Below, piece after piece: positions 9,843 through 39,040 of a stretch of DNA of 64,000 nt. How positions within the stretch are numbered: position 1 is the first letter of the stretch; each line of letters opens with the position of its first letter. Source of the stretch: a virus; the IMG/VR virus record IMGVR_UViG_3300027844_002282; one strand, 5' to 3'. Below the pieces are notes generated by a model, which was not told the DNA's origin, did not search any database, and saw only the letters and a list, made by a program, of their open reading frames with translations. Position numbers and translations under genes: made by a program.

Positions 9843-10930
9843 ATTTTTTCGATCCTTTCGAGTAACTGGTTATTAATTGTAAAAATAGCCTCGGCAGAAA
9901 CGTGCTTAGCCCAATCCTTATCGAGATCTTCCACCGTTCTCAACTGCTTCAACATATCTCCGATACATTCCTCGTTTCGAGACTCATTTGGGAAAAACAA
10001 ACTCTGCGTCAAAATCCTAATCAACTCCTTGCGCCAGGTTTTCTGACCGATCTTGCTTTTGACCGTCAAGTCGATCATCCGATCAATATCAAAACCGTGA
10101 ATTATTTTCGGGCTGTGCGTCGTAAAAACTATTTGACAATTTGGGAAACATTTTTCAATGCAGCCAACCAGAGCCATGTGACGACTCAACTCTACGTGCA
10201 TCTCTACGTCATCGATCAACACCACAGATGGCATTATTTCCTTGTTTAACAACGTTGTGAAGCACTTTATGATCTTTTTCTCCCCCTTACTACACTCTCG
10301 GTCAGAAATCGTCTCATTGGGCTTAGTTATCGTCAATCCTAAAACGTGTTCATCCATCTGTGCGGCGCGATTTTTTAAGTTTCCGTTGTTAAGATTAACT
10401 GTGAACGGAGACATCGGACACTCGACTTTATCCACCTTGTATCCTGTAACGGATTCGAAGAGTTCTTTGAATTCTTCCCATTGTTCAAGTCGAAGTTGAA
10501 AAGTATGTAGCTCTTCGTCATATCTCGTCCTGAAAGATTGACGCATGAGCGTCTCCGCAATCTCCTTCGGGTGGCCCTTTTCACGGAGGTATCCACTCTT
10601 GTCGATGGCGATACTATAATCTCCGAACTCGGAACTAATCTCCGCCTCAATCAAAAAGTTAGCCTTCTCCTGCTCTGGCACGGTCATCTGTTTGTAATTA
10701 CGAATGCATTTTCTCATTGACACCTCAATTCTATCAGAATCGTATGCGGCGAAGGTTGACATCGCGAGAGTTATAGCGTCTAAAATCGTAGTTTTACCAC
10801 TGCCGTTGGGACCGAACAGGCCGAACAGTAGATAGATACCCTCGTCATTTGAGAAGTTTAAGTGAAAATCTTCGTAACACTTAAAGTTTTTAAGAGTAAG
10901 ACTTTTGATCGCTAATCGGGGTTGAGACAT
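9839..10930 (-). CDS. ABC/SMC-like AAA ATPase
   Basis: LTLKNFK, Walker A GPNGSGKT, signature SKGEK, Walker B LIDDVE, TTHSP. Confidence 0.85.
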   Translation of the reverse strand: MSQPRLAIKSLTLKNFKCYEDFHLNFSNDEGIYLLFGLFGPNGSGKTTILDAITLAMSTFAAYDSDRIEVSMRKCIRNYKQMTVPEQEKANFLIEAEISSEFGDYSIAIDKSGYLREKGHPKEIAETLMRQSFRTRYDEELHTFQLRLEQWEEFKELFESVTGYKVDKVECPMSPFTVNLNNGNLKNRAAQMDEHVLGLTITKPNETISDRECSKGEKKIIKCFTTLLNKEIMPSVVLIDDVEMHVELSRHMALVGCIEKCFPNCQIVFTTHSPKIIHGFDIDRMIDLTVKSKIGQKTWRKELIRILTQSLFFPNESRNEECIGDMLKQLRTVEDLDKDWAKHVSAEAIFTINNQLLERIEKI

Positions 10931-11625: not shown

Positions 11626-11893
11626 AGTACTTTGGCCCTAAACAGTGTTGAGATTACACTGATTGGAGGCAAAGTTGTTTCTTTTCAACATTATTTACTC
11701 CGAAATCAGTGTAAATTTTACACCGATTGTCTGGAAAGATGTCGAAAATAGCCAAAACACTTTTTAGTCTTTGATTTACTCTGAAATCAGTGTAAAATTT
11801 ACATCGATTGAGCCAACGGATTTTTCAATCTCTTCTTTTCAATAATACTTTGCCCGCAAACAGTGTTGAGATTACACTGATTAGCGAGTAAGT
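11626..11893. repeat. four palindromic repeats (A-B-B-A order) sharing core AATCAGTGTAA
   Basis: aaacagtgttgagattacactgatt twice (~11640, ~11858) and tttactc[c/t]gaaatcagtgtaaa..ttaca[c/t]cgattg twice (~11694, ~11775). Confidence 0.85.
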
Positions 11894-12025
11894 GGTGTAA
11901 AATCGAAAAGTTCAGATCGAACAACAAAATTTAACATACCAGCTTGAAATGAGCGGTTTTTAAGGTATGTTACATCCATTAGAAAAGCACGAAAGAAATT
12001 AAAAAAACGAATCAGAGGTAGAACT

Positions 12026-13377: not shown

Positions 13378-13815
13378 CTAAACTGTGTTCTCCAAACGTA
13401 CTCTTTCTTTCTCAGCGTCGGCGTTTTCCGCCGCCTGCTCAGAGGCCTTGTCTTGTGATATTTCATTCTCGGTTAACTCTATCTTCTTCTCAACATCAAA
13501 AAGACTTGTGGGTTTACCCTTAGCGACATCAGCTAAAGCCGTTATTACGGCCTTGATGTCGTTTGGAACGGCAACGGTTTCTGGGTCCATAACATTATTC
13601 GGGGCCAAAAGTCTTTTTAGATCAGAGTCATTAATAAATGTAGAAAGACCCATTTCTACAATATTTTGAATCATAGTAAGGCATTCTTCTTTAACAGTTT
13701 GACTGTCGTCCCACTGCGCTATTTTACCAATAGACTTCCATTCCTTCTTGCTAATTTGAAGAAGCTTCCGTGATTTGCCATTAGAGTTGGCTATTTTTGT
13801 TGTCACAATTCTCAT
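13378..13815 (-). CDS. hypothetical protein (N-terminal SKKEW motif)
   Basis: 145-aa ORF in operon; N-terminus resembles 31719..32210. Confidence 0.6.
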   Translation of the reverse strand: MRIVTTKIANSNGKSRKLLQISKKEWKSIGKIAQWDDSQTVKEECLTMIQNIVEMGLSTFINDSDLKRLLAPNNVMDPETVAVPNDIKAVITALADVAKGKPTSLFDVEKKIELTENEISQDKASEQAAENADAEKERVRLENTV

Positions 13816-16388: not shown

Positions 16389-16545
16389 TAGTATTCTAAT
16401 TAATGAAAAGGAAACCTTTATTTCCCACCAAAAGGAGGATTTTGTGAGAAGCTTTCTTAAAATGACTTGACATCGACCGTTTGTGGTGTATTATAAGCAC
16501 ATTGAAACAAACACATCGACATAAAAGTTTTTCGGAACGAAAGGA
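16389..16545 (+). repeat. 157-bp direct repeat copy 1, carrying sigma70-type promoter and RBS
   Basis: appears identical to 17287-17443; contains TTGACA-N17-TATTAT. Confidence 0.95.
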
Positions 16546-16560
16546 ACAGGATATTCAAAA

Positions 16561-16674
16561 ATGACTACAGCAATTACAACCAGAGTAAAAACGAATACAG
16601 TCGCTGCTATTATAGCAGCGTCCATCCGCCATGATAATGGTAGATGGAACGGGATTCGTTCCTCAGGGTTGTAG
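16561..16674 (+). CDS. putative attenuator leader peptide (37 aa, MTTAITTRVKTNTVAAIIAASIRHDNGRWNGIRSSGL)
   Basis: RBS AGGA; its 3' end (ttcctcagg) is complementary to the 5' arm of the downstream terminator. Confidence 0.65.
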   Translation: MTTAITTRVKTNTVAAIIAASIRHDNGRWNGIRSSGL

Positions 16675-16700
16675 CCTTGTAGTTAAGTACAAGCGTACAA

Positions 16701-16740
16701 AAAAAAGGCCTGAGGGAATCAAAAACCTCAGGCCTTTTTT
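16701..16740 (+). terminator. intrinsic terminator (attenuator) upstream of tRNA genes
   Basis: aaaaaaggcctgagg-loop-cctcaggcctttttt. Confidence 0.9.
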
Positions 16741-16866
16741 GTGTTCATACACAGACGATCTTTGAAAATAGAATAGAATAAAGAAAAAACAAAAGGGATG
16801 TTGTACTTCACGGTATAATAGACCTTTAACATACTCCTGTCTCTGCGTAACAAACAGAGGCAGATT

Positions 16867-16942
16867 GCGGACATCGTATAAAGGATAATTACCTTTGGCT
16901 TCCACCCAAATGATGTGAGTTCGAGTCTCACTGTTCGCTCCA
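16867..16942 (+). tRNA. tRNA-Gly(TCC)
   Basis: cloverleaf; anticodon arm tttgg-cttccac-ccaaa; TTCGAG; CCA. Confidence 0.9.
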
Positions 16943-16952
16943 ATTTTTTCTT

Positions 16953-17028
16953 GCGGGTATAGTTCAATTGGTAGAGCAATAGGTTTCCAACCTGTCTGTT
17001 GTCGGTTCGAATCCGACTACCCGCTCCA
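16953..17028 (+). tRNA. tRNA-Gly(TCC)
   Basis: cloverleaf; atagg-tttccaa-cctgt; CCA. Confidence 0.92.
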
Positions 17029-17029
17029 C

Positions 17030-17132
17030 TCTTGAAGGGGCTCCCGATTCTGAATATCAATGTAGGTGAGCCAAGTGGCGGATCGTGATTCAGCATGATC
17101 AAGTGGTGCCCAATCACCACCCTTCAAGACCA
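17030..17132 (+). ncRNA. CCA-ended structured RNA of unknown class
   Basis: closing stem tcttgaagg/ccttcaaga followed by CCA; three internal hairpins. Confidence 0.6.
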
Positions 17133-17286: not shown

Positions 17287-17443
17287 TAGTATTCTAATTA
17301 ATGAAAAGGAAACCTTTATTTCCCACCAAAAGGAGGATTTTGTGAGAAGCTTTCTTAAAATGACTTGACATCGACCGTTTGTGGTGTATTATAAGCACAT
17401 TGAAACAAACACATCGACATAAAAGTTTTTCGGAACGAAAGGA
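17287..17443 (+). repeat. 157-bp direct repeat copy 2 (promoter of the 17459-19238 cassette)
   Basis: appears identical to 16389-16545. Confidence 0.95.
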
Positions 17444-17458
17444 GAACGATGAGAACAA

Positions 17459-18277
17459 ATGAAAACTTACTGCATAATCGGTGCCTACGAGTATAATGGC
17501 AGTGCTCGTGATGCGATAGTCGAATACTTTTGTATGCAGGGGGTCGATGGCTTGGTTGTCGTTGATCATAGAAGCCAAAGACCGGCTAGCGACGAGATAG
17601 GGAATGCCGATGCTTGGATGTATCTATGCAGTGCTGCCTGTTCTGCTGGGATGGAGGTGATTTTTCAGTATCACGAATTACCGCGAAGCATAGACCAAGG
17701 ACGAATCGAGAAGATCGTGTCTACTGGGTGCGGCAAGATAAGTATCGGGAGCGCAGAAACTACAGAATGGGTCGGCTCTCACGAGTTGGCGGAAGAAAAC
17801 ATTGAGATTGGCAAGCGCATGGGTTTCGAGTGGGTGTGCGGCATAACGCCGAGGACGATCCTAATGGATTTACTTACTCGTAAGCGGAGAGAAGTTCTCG
17901 TCAGGAATAATGTCTTGTGCCTTACCCTTTCTCCCTATATCCTGTGGGGGTATATGTTTGCTGACGAGCGATTCCCCCATCAATGGGAAACCACGCTGGC
18001 GGGAAAGAACCTTCATGTCGAGTACGGTCTCACGCCGGAAAGACTTGCTGACTACGTTGAGCCACTTGACATAATGGCGGGAGTGGGATCACAGGTGGGT
18101 CTTGATGCCGGTAGCGCAGTATATGCCAAGATGTTAAACTTCAAGGGTTTGGTGATCTCGCTGCCGTTCGATCTGACGGGTGTGTTCGACACCTCAGTAA
18201 GAATGTCGCCTCCGGGCAGCTACCCGACTATTTGTGGGAATTTTGAAGAGGGAGGATACAGGAATGCCTATGCGTGA
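17459..18277 (+). CDS. hypothetical protein
   Basis: 272-aa ORF right after the duplicated promoter/RBS; higher GC than flanks. Confidence 0.7.
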   Translation: MKTYCIIGAYEYNGSARDAIVEYFCMQGVDGLVVVDHRSQRPASDEIGNADAWMYLCSAACSAGMEVIFQYHELPRSIDQGRIEKIVSTGCGKISIGSAETTEWVGSHELAEENIEIGKRMGFEWVCGITPRTILMDLLTRKRREVLVRNNVLCLTLSPYILWGYMFADERFPHQWETTLAGKNLHVEYGLTPERLADYVEPLDIMAGVGSQVGLDAGSAVYAKMLNFKGLVISLPFDLTGVFDTSVRMSPPGSYPTICGNFEEGGYRNAYA

Positions 18278-19238
18278 CGGGATCGTGCTGAGATTTATTC
18301 CGGGGGTCACTTATTCTGTCGTCATTTTTCATATTGGTCACATGACCACGATGATGTGCAATTTTCTTTACGCGAAAAAGCATCATGGTATCTGCTATAT
18401 TGCGCCAGAGATAAGTACAATCGGGTTAAACGGAGCGGGGTTTATAAGACCGTACCTGTCGATAAGTGGCTATCGAACAGATACTTCTCTCAGGCTGTTT
18501 GGTAATCTGGGTATCCCGGAAGTACTGATAAGACCGATTCCAACATACTGGGGTGGCTTAGAGCTACGCCAAGAGATGAGTAAAAAACTTCATGCAGAAA
18601 CTGGAGCATCGATTAGCCAAATATTGGATGAATTCCCGAAGGCTGATATCAGTAGTTCGATAGTCGCTGTTTTTGATTTTCTCTTGGGGTCGAATGTCAT
18701 AATTCGCGGTGGTGATTGGAAGGGCATTGTAGATCCCCATATCCGTGCTTCGACTTATGTAGAGACCCATCGAGCGATCCTAAATTATTTAAGAGGGATA
18801 GTCGGTCAAGGTCCGATTACGGAACACTTCGCACCACTAGTTCTTTCGGACGGAGAGAAGATATCCAAGTCAGCCATTGCTGACATGGGAGAAGACCCCG
18901 TAGTAGTATTCCGAGAAGGGGGATGTTCGACGGAAAATGCCCCCGGAATTTCCCCTCTGGCGTATCTGGTATGGATGGCTGGAAAGGTTGGAGAGGATCT
19001 TAGGTCGATTGATGATTTTGTCAATTATTATCAGCTTTTCGACATCGAGGCTGTTCCGGAAGAGCTTGATTTTGTATTGGATGACCTGCTCAATGCCGAC
19101 GAGGTTGTCAAAAAAGCGTTCGGTCATACATCGAGTAGCGGCGATGACTTGGTGAAACACCTTGCTGTTTTCAGCGATGCTTTAGGGGTTAGTCGGGTCG
19201 ATGGCGTTTACGAGGATACTATAATTTGTAATTTTTGA
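18264..19238 (+). CDS. divergent class I aaRS catalytic domain (GluRS/GluQ-like)
   Basis: LRFIPG...FHIGH...CNFLYAKKHHG, IIRGGD, HFAPLVLSDGEKISKS (HIGH and KMSKS equivalents); RBS GGAGG before ATG 18264. Confidence 0.7.
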   Translation: MPMRDGIVLRFIPGVTYSVVIFHIGHMTTMMCNFLYAKKHHGICYIAPEISTIGLNGAGFIRPYLSISGYRTDTSLRLFGNLGIPEVLIRPIPTYWGGLELRQEMSKKLHAETGASISQILDEFPKADISSSIVAVFDFLLGSNVIIRGGDWKGIVDPHIRASTYVETHRAILNYLRGIVGQGPITEHFAPLVLSDGEKISKSAIADMGEDPVVVFREGGCSTENAPGISPLAYLVWMAGKVGEDLRSIDDFVNYYQLFDIEAVPEELDFVLDDLLNADEVVKKAFGHTSSSGDDLVKHLAVFSDALGVSRVDGVYEDTIICNF

Positions 19239-20032: not shown

Positions 20033-20044
20033 CACTTAACAGAT

Positions 20045-20116
20045 GCCTACGTAGCTCAACTGGAAGAGCACTTCGCTACGAAGAGGTTGCAAGTTCAAAC
20101 CTTGCAGTGGGTACCA
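20045..20116 (+). tRNA. tRNA-Arg(ACG), anticodon stem shortened (possibly defective)
   Basis: cttcg-ctacgaa then 3' stem strand missing bases; CCA. Confidence 0.6.
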
Positions 20117-20120
20117 TTTT

Positions 20121-20558: not shown

Positions 20559-20638
20559 AGCGGAAGAGTGGATGTGGATACATAGACCATACCAGCCTCA
20601 TAAGTTGGAGATTGCAGGTTCGACTCCTGCTTCCGCTA
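20559..20638 (+). tRNA. tRNA-Met(CAT), no encoded CCA
   Basis: agcggaa/ttccgct; ccagc-ctcataa-gttgg; T arm gcagg-ttcgact-cctgc. Confidence 0.82.
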
Positions 20639-24603: not shown

Positions 24604-24679
24604 GAAAATAACCTAATATGTAAAATTAACTTGTTTTTTCATATACGCGGTTACATTGCAGATATCCTTTTTCAATCTA

Positions 24680-24744
24680 TACATTGGTGGCGCAACAGGC
24701 TCTTAATCTGAAGGTTGCGGGTTCGATTACCGCCCGATGCACCA
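24680..24744 (+). pseudogene. tRNA-Lys(CTT) with deleted D arm
   Basis: cagg-ctcttaa-tctg, T arm and CCA intact; D arm truncated. Confidence 0.65.
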
Positions 24745-25056
24745 ATTACTCAAGGCCGAGCATCTCTTTTGCTCTCTCGTCAGTGATCAAGCCTGATTCA
24801 AAAGACTTAAAGATTTGCTCGAAAGAGAAACCGTCTTTGTAAATACGGCCAATCTCGTAAGCCTCGTTCCCATGCGGAACGGTAATTACAGCAGTGGCAG
24901 CCTGGGCGGCACCTAATTGCTTTTCGACTCTGGCCTTTTCTGACTCAAGGTCTTGGACGGAAGCGGGTGAATTTTGAGAGCCAACAGTAACGACAAATAA
25001 TCTTTTACTCATAATCAAACTCCTGTGGTTAGGTTAAAATATATTATACATCACAT

Positions 25057-32210: not shown

Positions 32211-32450
32211 TACGCCCTCTTATGATTGGGTTGTGTTTTGTTATGTTGTGATTATGTTACTTATTTTTAGTAATACTCCTTCATAGAGCTTGCAAAACCA
32301 GTAATTAACGGTATAATATCACTGTTATGAACGCCATCCAGCCCGGAACGGCTGAGATGATAGGAAAAGCCCCGGACTGAACACTGGGGCATTTTCTATT
32401 TTAGGGCTTGACAAATGGGAAACACGAACTATTGTTATGTATTAACAATT

Positions 32451-32646
32451 TCTTTTAGGCCGACTCGTCGCTGGTTAAACCAGAGGAAAGTCAGGACTAC
32501 ACTTCTTAAGGTAGGACGGAAAACCGGATAGCACTACCGAGGTAGCAACGCAAACAGGCTGAGTGTGTGAGAAGCACTGTGAAGCCGGGTAGCGGCAAAG
32601 ATTAATGACGAGGTTGAAACAAAATCCTGCTTACGAGCCTAAAAGA
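32451..32646 (+). ncRNA. rnpB: RNase P RNA, minimal (~196 nt)
   Basis: P1 tcttttaggc/gcctaaaaga; P2 ctcgtcg/tgacgag; CR-I GAGGAAAGTC; CR-V ACAAAATCCTGCTTA; P4 pairing cagga/tcctg; upstream TTGACA promoter. Confidence 0.85.
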
Positions 32647-32959
32647 TTAATTATTGGTTAAAAAATGGAATGTCTAAATCAAAATAAAACTCACAAACGA
32701 GGTGAAGAATTGGAGAAACCAAGCAAAGTGAAGATGGTCATACGTTTCTTGATATTTTTTGCTATATCATTCCTTTTAATCGAAGGAATAGAGCATATTC
32801 TTCATGAGGTCTTCGATATACACATGCACGGCTGGTTTTCTTGGGGCGGACTTGGGGTTATCATCTTATTTGGATTTAAATTTCACATGATTTGTTGCGT
32901 CATTCCCTCAATCATCGCGGCAATCCTCTGCATTAAGAAGCGCCACAAACATTGCGACC

Positions 32960-37106: not shown

Positions 37107-38159
37107 AGGGAGGGGAATTATGACAGAAATCACAGAAAAACAAGAAAACACCACATAATCACAACACTTTAGCGGACCAAACAGAAGATTGGAAAGCTCA
37201 AATAATATATATTACAAAACAATGAGTTTGATTCTCCAGAAGAAGCGGCAGAATATATCGAACAATATGTCAAAGATGTTAAGGAGTTGAATCATTTGAC
37301 GAAGAAGTTCAATATTCTCGGATATTCTCACGAAAGTGAAATGAGCGTGGGGCAACAAAAGGGTTTTGTAGGAAGTTTTGGCCCACTAATGGAGCAGTTG
37401 GCGGATATTGGCAGAAGAGAGTTGGAAAAGAAAGGAAGGAATAGCACCCCTATTTATTGAAAATATAACTATGTCTAATATGGCATAATTCAATAGGGGG
37501 GATAAAGTTATGGCAACCAAAGCCACGAATTCCAGGAAAAAGACTCCAACAAAATCGCGTACTCCAGCCAAGAAGCCCGCCGTGTCTGTAAAAGAAGACC
37601 CCAAGGTAAAAAAGACTGGTGTGTTTAGAGAGTCAAGGGTGATTATTTCATTTTGCATCGTTGCAATCATGTTTATTATCATTGTTTTGCAAGGCAAAGA
37701 AATCAGTGGTATAAAAAACTCCACTGATATTAATAGAACGCTAATTGCCCAAACGGATGACAAAGTCGCCGCAAACGTTAGTAAAATCCTAACGATATCA
37801 AGTGATATCGAGAAATTAAAGAAAAGATCCGCCTTCGCGGTAAAAAAAAAAGAGTGAGGTAGTCACATCAGAATCTGTCCCAATACCGACCATAGACCCC
37901 AATGTGACATTAAAGGTATTCGAAGATGTCGAAAGCCTCGAAGAGTTCACGCTTGATGTCACGACAGTGGAGCCCGCCCCTCCGGTAGAGACATGGTACG
38001 TAGAAGATAAGCCAGCCCTACTGAAGCCACGTTCGTGGAGGTGTAAAGCCCCATGGAAATGGAAGATTTGGTAGAAAAGATGTAGAATCTTTGTGTAAGA
38101 GCTTGACATTGCCCTTTTGAGAGGCTATGTTGTATCTCAGTTTGAAAATAGAATAGTTT

Positions 38160-38286
38160 GTGGTTTCCAGTTTCCGTAAAAACTGGTGGTGGAGGGTATA
38201 GCGATTCAAACCGTTTTTGCCCCTGGCTACAAGGAGTCGTTTTATTGGGTTAAGCACCTTGTCAATGCTAACCCAGATTTTCCACA
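38160..38286 (+). ncRNA. structured RNA immediately upstream of tmRNA
   Basis: tgtgg/ccaca closing stem; hairpins ccagttt/aaactgg and gggtta/taaccc; caagg-ccttg possible pseudoknot. Confidence 0.45.
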
Positions 38287-38292
38287 TTTTGT

Positions 38293-38997
38293 GGGGACGT
38301 AACAGGTATTCGACTAGAATGGTAGAATATCAATTGCATGTCGAGGATGACTGTTGGCCTCGTTAAACATCAGTTAAAAAACATAAAAGCGAACAACGAA
38401 GAAATCCTTCAGTTCCCTGGTCTTGATGCAGGTTTTGCAGCACCAGTAGAGGCTCCGGCCTTTGCAATCGCTGCCTAATTAGTTGACAGACTAACTCGGC
38501 CTTAATTGAGCCGAGCGCTTAACGGATGGACCCTTGATAAATCCGTAAGCGACAAAAATCGAGGAAAGCGCTTGATACTGACTCACCTGAGTTGAGAGTG
38601 AAAGTTTTAGGTGATCGTCATACTGCCAGTTGGTGTTAATACCTGCGAATGTAATACGGCACAGACTAAAAGATAGCAAAATTAACTATACATGTAGACG
38701 TTGATATAAAGTTGTTTTAGGACGCGGGTTCGATCAAATTGGTCGCCATGAGAAGTGATTCTCATTGGAAACTGAGAGCTTTCACGGTGAAAGCTAAGTT
38801 GAGTAATCAATATGCCAACGCCGTATGGTGAATCTGAAAAGAGGAAGCCATCTAGAGACTTATAGAGTCCTAAGGTATTTATACTATGGATCACTAGGAT
38901 GGGTAAAACCATAACACGCTCTCCCCTGACTTGTCAGGTGAAGAAATAGTCCTTGCCAGGTGAAAGTCTGGGTGTACAAGCCCCGCCGTCTCCACCA
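38293..38997 (+). ncRNA. ssrA: tmRNA (intron-containing); tag ANNEEILQFPGLDAGFAAPVEAPAFAIAA at 38389-38478
   Basis: GGGGAC...TCGAC 5' end; G3:U acceptor with gtctccACCA 3' end; tag ends IAA; T arm split. Confidence 0.93.
38735..38980 (+). mobile_element. group I intron in tmRNA T-loop
   Basis: 5' exon ends in U with P1 cgat/gtcg (U-G pair); R element AGAGACT, S element AAGAAATAGTCC; terminal G; splicing restores gcggg-ttcgatc-cccgc. Confidence 0.88.
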
Positions 38998-39002
38998 ATA
39001 TG

Positions 39003-39040
39003 AAAAAGGCTGAGTGCCTATAAAGCACTCAGTCTTTTTT
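39003..39040 (+). terminator. intrinsic terminator after tmRNA
   Basis: aaaaaggctgagtgc-loop-gcactcagtctttttt. Confidence 0.85.

Follow-up and report, generated by a model that had tools for sequence, protein, structure and literature searches.

The stretch of viral DNA considered here, IMG/VR record IMGVR_UViG_3300027844_002282 (64,000 nucleotides [nt], hereafter the window), comes from a large uncultured phage that encodes a terminase (1001–2752) and a CCA-adding enzyme and carries a tRNA island spanning 16.8 to 29.4 kb of the window. At the head of this island lie, in order and on the + strand, a sigma70-type promoter (P1), a 37-codon open reading frame (ORF), an intrinsic terminator, an 18-nt element resembling the boxA of ribosomal RNA (rrn) operons, two tRNA-Gly genes and a third RNA ending in CCA. 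A reading made from the letters of the window alone (the sequence-only reading) had proposed that this leader is a leader-peptide attenuator that gates the phage tRNA genes, and the present analysis concerns that proposal.

P1 (TTGACA-16-TATTAT, 16467–16494) matches the consensus at 11 of 12 positions and would give a transcript with a 60-nt untranslated region (UTR) ahead of the Thr-rich ORF (MTTAITTRVKTNTVAAIIAASIRHDNGRWNGIRSSGL, 16561–16674), which has homologous ORFs in two related phages. A Shine-Dalgarno (SD)-like AGGA (16548–16551) is placed 9 nt upstream of the ATG; its duplex with the anti-SD sequence is computed at −5.8 kcal/mol, near the median of −5.5 kcal/mol for 29 long ORFs of the phage. 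Promoter, ribosome-binding site and ORF are thus where the sequence-only reading had put them. The terminator (16701–16740) comprises region 3 (16707–16721), region 4 (16726–16734) and a T-tract (16735–16740). Its G+C-rich 9-bp stem (16707–16715/16726–16734) closes a 10-nt loop, with an A-tract before it and six T residues after it, and its energy of −25.2 kcal/mol ranks with those of the strongest terminators of the window, which bears out its earlier description as strong; a standard terminator scan overlooked it solely through that scan's 8-nt loop limit. The two tRNA-Gly(TCC) genes of the earlier description were recovered by both ARAGORN and Rfam at 16867–16942 (about 72–76% identical to T4-type tRNA-Gly) and at 16953–17028 (with an encoded CCA). 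The CCA-ended RNA that follows (103 nt, 17030–17132) is likewise present and structured: its 10-bp terminal stem stacks on a 6-bp hairpin, and the fold z-score is −3.9; it drew no tRNA call from ARAGORN or Rfam and is not a canonical tRNA.

The leader RNA can adopt alternative structures, as the sequence-only reading had proposed checking by folding. In the predicted fold the entire ORF is contained in a long rod (16562–16685) with a three-way tip, in which the start codon and codons 2–13 pair with codons 29–37 and the bases just past the stop codon. The 5′ arm of the rod is region 1 (16562–16601), and the part of it that pairs with region 2 corresponds to codons 7–12 (T R V K T N). Region 2 (16652–16668, codons 31–36) pairs either with region 1 or, as an antiterminator, with region 3. 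Two hairpins at the tip of the rod (16602–16648) may serve as a pause structure, and a further hairpin between regions 2 and 3 (16669–16700) has the stop codon in its 5′ stem and competes with the base of the rod. The rod has a computed energy of −55.4 kcal/mol, compared with −28.6 ± 3.5 kcal/mol for shuffled sequences (z −7.7).

The complementarity between the end of the ORF and the 5′ arm of the terminator is real and extends further than first described. The segment ttcctcagg (16659–16667) pairs with cctgaggga (16709–16717), with CCUCAGG (16661–67) opposite CCUGAGG (16709–15) as its core, and GAUUC (16653–57) additionally pairs with GAAUC (16716–20) in the terminator loop. This 2:3 duplex is computed at −17.5 kcal/mol, against −9.1 ± 1.9 kcal/mol for dinucleotide shuffles of the upstream 130 nt, of which 1 in 2000 was as good. 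As a control, the best upstream complements of four other strong terminators in the window were matched by 33, 666, 874 and 835 of 1000 shuffles. Nascent RNA extending to 16722 and lacking region 1 folds as the antiterminator; once the 3′ arm of the terminator is included, the terminator fold wins. The pairing of region 1 with region 2 is an addition to the original proposal. The 1:2, 2:3 and 3:4 pairings are mutually exclusive, and region 1 lies within the ORF, as in known attenuators; a short ORF near the promoter and a terminator ahead of the regulated genes are likewise those of the class. Only 3 nt separate the end of region 2 from the stop codon in the window, a geometry in which a ribosome at the stop codon would mask region 2 directly.

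The region is 100% identical in other copies of the window phage from several metagenomes, so these offer no variation to analyse. Relatives were found by a profile search with the RdgC-like protein encoded 3 kb upstream of the leader, and form a small syntenic phage family. Two of the relative contigs, L012 and L293, reach the site equivalent to the leader, and three others (L009, L010 and L046) end before it. Both are distant from the window phage, their RdgC-like neighbours being 34% (L012) and 37% (L293) identical to that of the window, and both are syntenic with it. In L012, a promoter (TTGACA-17-TATGAT) that aligns with P1 and is homologous to it precedes a 35-codon leader ORF (MSLIRVTTKTAAVADARKRNGHGWNTPVSGSLSGL), a rod in which codons 6–11 pair with codons 26–31, and an antiterminator that matches the 5′ arm of the terminator perfectly over 13 bp (−29.7 kcal/mol, with none of 2000 shuffles as good); the terminator is followed by TCTTTGAAAACAGAATAG and then by tRNA-Gly(GCC), the first of at least 11 tRNAs. 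In L293, two promoters precede a 40-codon ORF (MQTRWTTTIRTNTTAMVAAAAVAKRHGKGDNTCPGSPGLY), whose codons 2–6 pair with codons 32–37, and an antiterminator of −23.7 kcal/mol (1 of 2000 shuffles as good); after the terminator come TCTTTGTAAACTGAAGAG and tRNA-Gly(TCC), the first of 12 tRNAs. The whole-leader folds have z-scores of −4.9 (L012) and −6.2 (L293). The same layout is therefore found in all three phages: a sigma70-like promoter, a 35–40-codon ORF, a rod, an antiterminator, a terminator, a boxA-like element and a tRNA-Gly gene as the first tRNA. The sequences of the helices differ among the three, and the architecture is identical. The search for such a leader and terminator ahead of the tRNA arrays of related phages, suggested with the sequence-only reading, is in this way answered by L012 and L293.

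The switch could also be worked by a trans-acting factor, whether a protein, a tRNA or a small molecule, that attaches to the antiterminator or the rod, as happens with riboswitches, T-boxes or TRAP/PyrR; the ORF would then be irrelevant. The highly structured fold of about 125 nt with its three-way junction fits such a switch, as does an SD sequence that is weak in two of the three phages. What has been kept in the family, however, is the ORF and its frame and not the sequences of the helices, and the rod is mostly Watson-Crick, because the opposite strand folds nearly as stably (−51.3 kcal/mol), with no conserved loops hinting at a ligand pocket. Nor does the leader match an Rfam family. Membership of the T-box family was rejected, as there is no Rfam match at E ≤ 1 in the leader of the window or of L012, and Thr_leader (RF00506) was rejected as well, its match scoring 29.8 bits against a gathering score of 55 (E = 0.041) and covering only the hairpin and terminator at 16671–16742. 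We consider binding of a trans-acting factor an improbable explanation.

The frame of the leader ORF was tested at the peptide level, since an unguided nucleotide alignment of the ORFs is ambiguous at such divergence and has no codon periodicity. In-frame peptide alignments of the three pairs of leaders score 37, 60 and 43, whereas the eight other frame combinations of each pair score 11–26; shuffled peptides reach the observed scores in 38, 0 and 8 of 5000 trials, respectively. Residues shared between leaders are often encoded by synonymous codons, for example GGG TTG TAG in place of GGA CTC TGA. Because the alignment holds only in frame and shared residues differ synonymously, the comparison argues that the reading frame is under selection. 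The leaders are also rich in Thr, which makes up 6 of 37 codons in the window, 4 of 35 in L012 and 8 of 40 in L293, compared with 4.4% in the phage proteome (P = 0.005, 0.07 and 0.0003). This enrichment falls in codons 2–14, which hold 6, 3 and 7 Thr in the window, L012 and L293 (16 of 39 codons, and 16 of the 18 Thr of the leaders altogether), so that the Thr codons lie in or beside region 1, with three or four synonyms used per leader. The sequence-only reading had emphasised that the window leader samples many synonymous codons. The codons it listed are there (Thr ACT, ACA, ACC and ACG; Ala GCA, GCT and GCG; Ile ATT, ATA and ATC), but it is the Thr-rich 5′ third of the ORF, and not the sampling of synonyms, that is conserved.

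The conservation of the peptide exceeds what regulatory codons need, as blocks such as T-x-T, VAA, R/K-R-H/N-G, W/D-N and a C-terminal G-L are shared, with synonymous differences inside them (GGG TTG vs GGA CTC). These features would suit a version of the same RNA switch in which the nascent peptide is itself the sensor, as with the arrest peptides TnaC and SecM and the Erm leaders, and in which stalling answers a ligand or a state of the translation apparatus and not a scarce tRNA. Against an arrest peptide, the leader contains no known arrest motif, and the spacing from the W/D-N block to the stop codon varies (9–11 residues). In this geometry, moreover, stalling at the stop codon would favour termination, not read-through, and the RNA helices may impose part of the peptide conservation. 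On balance a sensing peptide seems quite unlikely to us. The peptide matches no protein family, and a type I toxin was considered and rejected, the peptide having no hydrophobic stretch of transmembrane length.

Nineteen nucleotides past the terminator lies the boxA-like 18-mer TCTTTGAAAATAGAATAG (16759–16776), which recurs with one mismatch in L012 and four mismatches in L293; aside from it and the promoter, almost nothing aligns between the window and L012. In rrn operons, boxA occurs in two places, ahead of 16S and after the spacer tRNA-Ile/Ala. Among 245 fetched sites with the exact 18-mer, from metagenome and genome collections, 27 precede the 5′ end of a 16S rRNA by 44–174 nt, and at least five follow closely on a spacer tRNA-Ile/tRNA-Ala. 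The 18-mer occupies these two positions in many bacteria. The mycoplasma PCR primer that holds GTTCTTTGAAAAC is directed at the rRNA spacer. This sequence, GTTCTTTGAAAAC, is part of a widely used primer (PMC3019172). The core of the 18-mer, TCTTTGAAAA, resembles the boxA consensus of gamma-proteobacteria, GYTCTTTAANA (PMC5725501). The phage site thus combines a boxA-type sequence with a position in a transcribed leader ahead of stable-RNA genes, as is typical of rrn boxA. A second copy in the window, AGTTTGAAAATAGAATAG (38139–38156, two mismatches), lies between a promoter (38103) and the phage tmRNA gene. By analogy with rRNA operons, the 18-mer probably loads host Nus factors.

An exact copy of the 18-mer also stands immediately before an array of 15 tRNAs in L013, an unrelated 106-kb IMG/VR phage (4930–4947, − strand), where no leader ORF or terminator is found upstream of it. 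Searches of three collections with the 18-mer gave no further homologue of the leader, the matches being mostly rrn leaders, conserved genes and chance occurrences, and the variant in L293 matched coding sequence only. That the element is part of a promoter was rejected, as neither the window nor L293 has a −10 sequence after it and the copy at 38139 comes after the −10 of its promoter. Closer to the tRNAs, a 9-bp hairpin read from the sequence directly before the first tRNA (16838–16864) may be a processing site. In L012 the interval between boxA and the first tRNA holds a perfect 14-bp long-range stem (CATGGGAACCGGAC/GTCCGGTTCCCATG, 13531–13624) around GTCCGGTT repeats, which may likewise be a processing stem.

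The position of the boxA-like element bears on whether the leader is connected to the tRNA genes at all. If the ORF were an independent small-protein gene and the terminator just its end, the tRNAs would owe their expression to leak-through or to a phage-specific promoter that escaped recognition, with the 2:3 pairing being incidental. A frame conserved in three phages and a strong terminator agree with that account, and a promoter dependent on a phage factor could include the lone TATAAT at 16814. Yet no sigma70-like promoter was found on the + strand between the terminator and the first tRNA in the window, L012 or L293, a check that the sequence-only reading had itself named. Because the boxA-like site is conserved, must be transcribed and lies only ~19 nt past the terminator, between it and any downstream start, transcripts that pass through the terminator appear to be the functional ones. 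An independent gene also leaves aside the 2:3 complement, which reaches significance in all three phages and has no counterpart at the control terminators, the conservation of the rod that buries the start codon, and the peptide's lack of a family match; we judge it unlikely. That P1 produces an independent small RNA of ~240 nt with no part in tRNA expression is, in our view, very improbable; strong promoter, structured body and strong terminator would make a plausible unit, but the conserved frame, the 2:3 complement and the boxA-like site and tRNA-Gly that follow every time would go unexplained. Taken jointly, these rival readings hold an appreciable share of the probability, somewhat less than half.

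We favour, with moderate confidence, the interpretation that a ribosome-mediated (leader-peptide) transcription attenuator heads the phage tRNA island and gates transcription into the boxA-like element and the tRNA genes. The attenuator of the sequence-only reading is in this respect upheld, and has gained the 1:2 pairing, its recurrence in two further phages, the conserved frame, the boxA-like element and the lack of a sigma70-like downstream promoter. From the elements themselves, their alternative pairings and the statistics of these, the layout and frame kept in three distant phages and the rrn identity of the 18-mer, we infer translation of the ORF, switching, Nus loading and a physiological trigger. 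When the ORF is not translated, the 1:2 rod would form and the 3:4 terminator would end transcription at ~16740. A ribosome that reaches the stop codon would mask region 2, directly in the window and less directly in L012 and L293, so that the terminator would again form. Stalling of a ribosome within the ORF's first third, at the Thr, Arg, Lys or Asn codons of region 1, would instead leave region 2 free to pair with the 5′ arm and loop of the terminator (2:3), and polymerase would read on. The read-through transcript would carry the boxA-like site, on which Nus factors could load, and polymerase would then be carried across the untranslated tRNA genes. In this scheme synthesis of the tRNAs probably rises when ribosomes translate slowly.

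Several observations weigh against this interpretation. In the relatives, region 2 ends 13 nt (L012) and 11 nt (L293) before the stop codon, so a terminating ribosome would hide no more than its final few bases, and the block of 2:3 pairing there must rely on steric hindrance together with re-formation of 1:2. The SD sequence is weak in both (−2.4 kcal/mol in L012 and −3.3 kcal/mol in L293) and merely average in the window. Only three leaders of this kind were found, and a MAFFT alignment of the switch region sets L293 one column out of register. The TATAAT at 16814 could mark a phage-specific promoter past the terminator. The Thr codons of the leaders are scattered among Ala, Ile, Arg, Lys and Asn codons and form no run such as those of thrL or hisL. 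Correspondence between the leader and the tRNAs of the island is weak: 19 of 37 leader codons match island tRNAs compared with 37% in genes (P = 0.05), and within codons 2–13 the figure is 8 of 12 (P = 0.035). Finally, the first genes behind a leader rich in Thr, Ala and Ile are for tRNA-Gly and not tRNA-Thr.

The leader would most likely be triggered when its Thr codons, or its mixed Thr, Arg, Lys, Asn and Ala codons, are decoded slowly. A shortage of Thr-tRNA and a general slowdown of translation are candidate causes; that the cause is cleavage of tRNAs by anticodon nucleases is speculation. A more far-reaching possibility, which we hold tentatively and think doubtful, is that the leader senses decoding speed and so lets the phage regulate its own tRNA supply by feedback. 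Slow reading of the Thr codons and of neighbouring Arg, Lys and Asn codons, caused by depletion of host tRNAs, by anticodon-nuclease cleavage or by degradation during infection, would turn the island on; boxA-modified polymerase would transcribe the whole untranslated island; and as phage tRNAs accumulated, the leader would be read fast and the island would be turned off. Overall, the proposal of the sequence-only reading is supported in part.

The leader is part of a larger duplicated arrangement. P1 and the 5′ UTR lie in a 176-nt direct repeat (copy 1, 16389–16564, + strand; copy 2, 17287–17462), whose copies are 95% identical overall and 100% identical over 157 nt (16389–16545/17287–17443). 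The repeats bracket the leader, terminator, two tRNA-Gly genes and tRNA-like RNA as a module between identical promoters, and several metagenome contigs of the window phage break inside the repeat. The promoter of copy 2, P2 (17365–17392, + strand), is identical to P1 and would drive the genes for a 272-amino acid (aa) protein and a 334-aa protein resembling glutamyl-tRNA synthetase (GluRS), and the remainder of the tRNA island. Since these genes behind copy 2 (17456–19225) are 99% identical to a cassette at 9998–11767 of L001, a phage of quite different backbone with no tRNAs near its cassette, P2 probably came with, or was copied for, the inserted cassette. L001 and L002 have an additional ORF whose beginning is matched by a relic at position 17449 of the window (ATGAGAACA), pointing to a deletion in the window phage. 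Upstream of the leader, a 51-nt hairpin-forming repeat occurs three times (11628–11896) in the divergent intergenic region ahead of the gene for the RdgC-like protein. Other searches for relatives returned little. Matches in a phage collection were limited to the tRNAs of the window, with a best terminase identity of at most 25%; IMG/VR held no relative of the 272-aa protein, the leader terminator or the promoter pattern, and its RdgC-like matches were just 21–27% identical and without tRNAs; and the two proteins flanking the leader had no homologues except their own copies.

Other structured RNAs are encoded within and beyond the island. Two island tRNAs (20043–20118 and 24678–24746) are odd, one having an 8-nt anticodon loop (GCUACGAA) and the other being a tRNA-Lys(CUU)-like gene that is truncated and lacks a normal D arm. 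Directly after tRNA(CAT) (20562–20638) is a match to the HDV-like ribozyme family RF02682 (20639–20708), which with 33.8 bits stays under the family's gathering score (44). Beyond the island, a short gene resembling RNase P RNA (198 nt, 32452–32649) has its own promoter at 32408 and matches the class A model at 63.9 bits (E = 5.5e-18), under the gathering score of 100. Just before it (32290–32400) lie a promoter, a 17-codon ORF and a strong terminator (T-tract at 32392), followed by the promoter of the RNase P RNA. The stop codon of this ORF falls in the terminator loop, complementarity of the upstream RNA to the terminator arm is marginal (matched by 33 of 1000 shuffles), and the unit may be a second small leader. 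The tmRNA gene (38303–38736, Rfam 91.9 bits), also beyond the island, has a tag-like ORF ending in AFAIAA and received no call from ARAGORN; past it, in the unit at 38103–39040, come ~300 nt more RNA ending in CCACCA and then a bidirectional terminator.

Leader-peptide attenuation is known for amino-acid operons and for a few synthetase and resistance genes. The phage leader shares with thrL, trpL, hisL, leuL, the ilv leaders and pheL a promoter-proximal short ORF, a region 1 inside that ORF, exclusive 1:2, 2:3 and 3:4 pairings and an intrinsic terminator, and with thrL in particular a richness in Thr and Ile. It differs from these in preceding phage tRNA genes and not biosynthetic genes, in having Thr codons that are interspersed and use all four synonyms, in the conservation of its peptide beyond the regulatory codons, and in the boxA-like site that follows its terminator, and it has no sequence homology to them. 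A trait common in the class, that the genes under control serve to make the amino acid being sensed or to charge it, is not found here, where they are two tRNA-Gly genes, a tRNA-like RNA and the rest of the tRNA island. Closer in its target is the pheST attenuator of E. coli, in which the pheM leader peptide places a component of translation under control of charged-tRNA supply; the phage attenuator would similarly control a component of the translation apparatus, but the pheST target is an aminoacyl-tRNA synthetase behind a run of Phe codons, whereas here it would be the tRNA genes themselves. As in T-box riboswitches, the state of the tRNA pool would choose between terminator and antiterminator; a T-box, however, binds uncharged tRNA directly and needs no ORF, and the phage antiterminator lacks the T-box bulge.

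The boxA-like site resembles the boxA of rrn leaders and spacers (NusB/NusE) and of lambda nut in lying within a transcribed leader before stable-RNA genes. It differs from rrn boxA in being placed in a phage, where it follows an attenuator and precedes a tRNA island as well as a tmRNA gene, and is by sequence a candidate Nus site. The tRNA cluster of T4, with its small stable RNAs, offers a parallel to the T4-like tRNA-Gly and the extra CCA-ended structured RNA of the window; to our knowledge, neither a leader-peptide attenuator nor a boxA has been described for it. Full-text literature searches likewise returned no account of a leader-peptide attenuator or a boxA before phage tRNA genes.

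Phage tRNA genes are generally viewed as passively expressed cargo. If the interpretation favoured here is true, leader-peptide attenuation extends to tRNA genes themselves, and large phages would gauge how translation proceeds in the cell they infect and set tRNA synthesis accordingly; they would also borrow the rRNA antitermination machinery of the host for long untranslated RNA islands. The element bears on why phages carry tRNAs, whether for codon usage, for replacing degraded host tRNAs or for escape from tRNA-cleaving defences, and makes that question testable with a reporter of roughly 400 bp.

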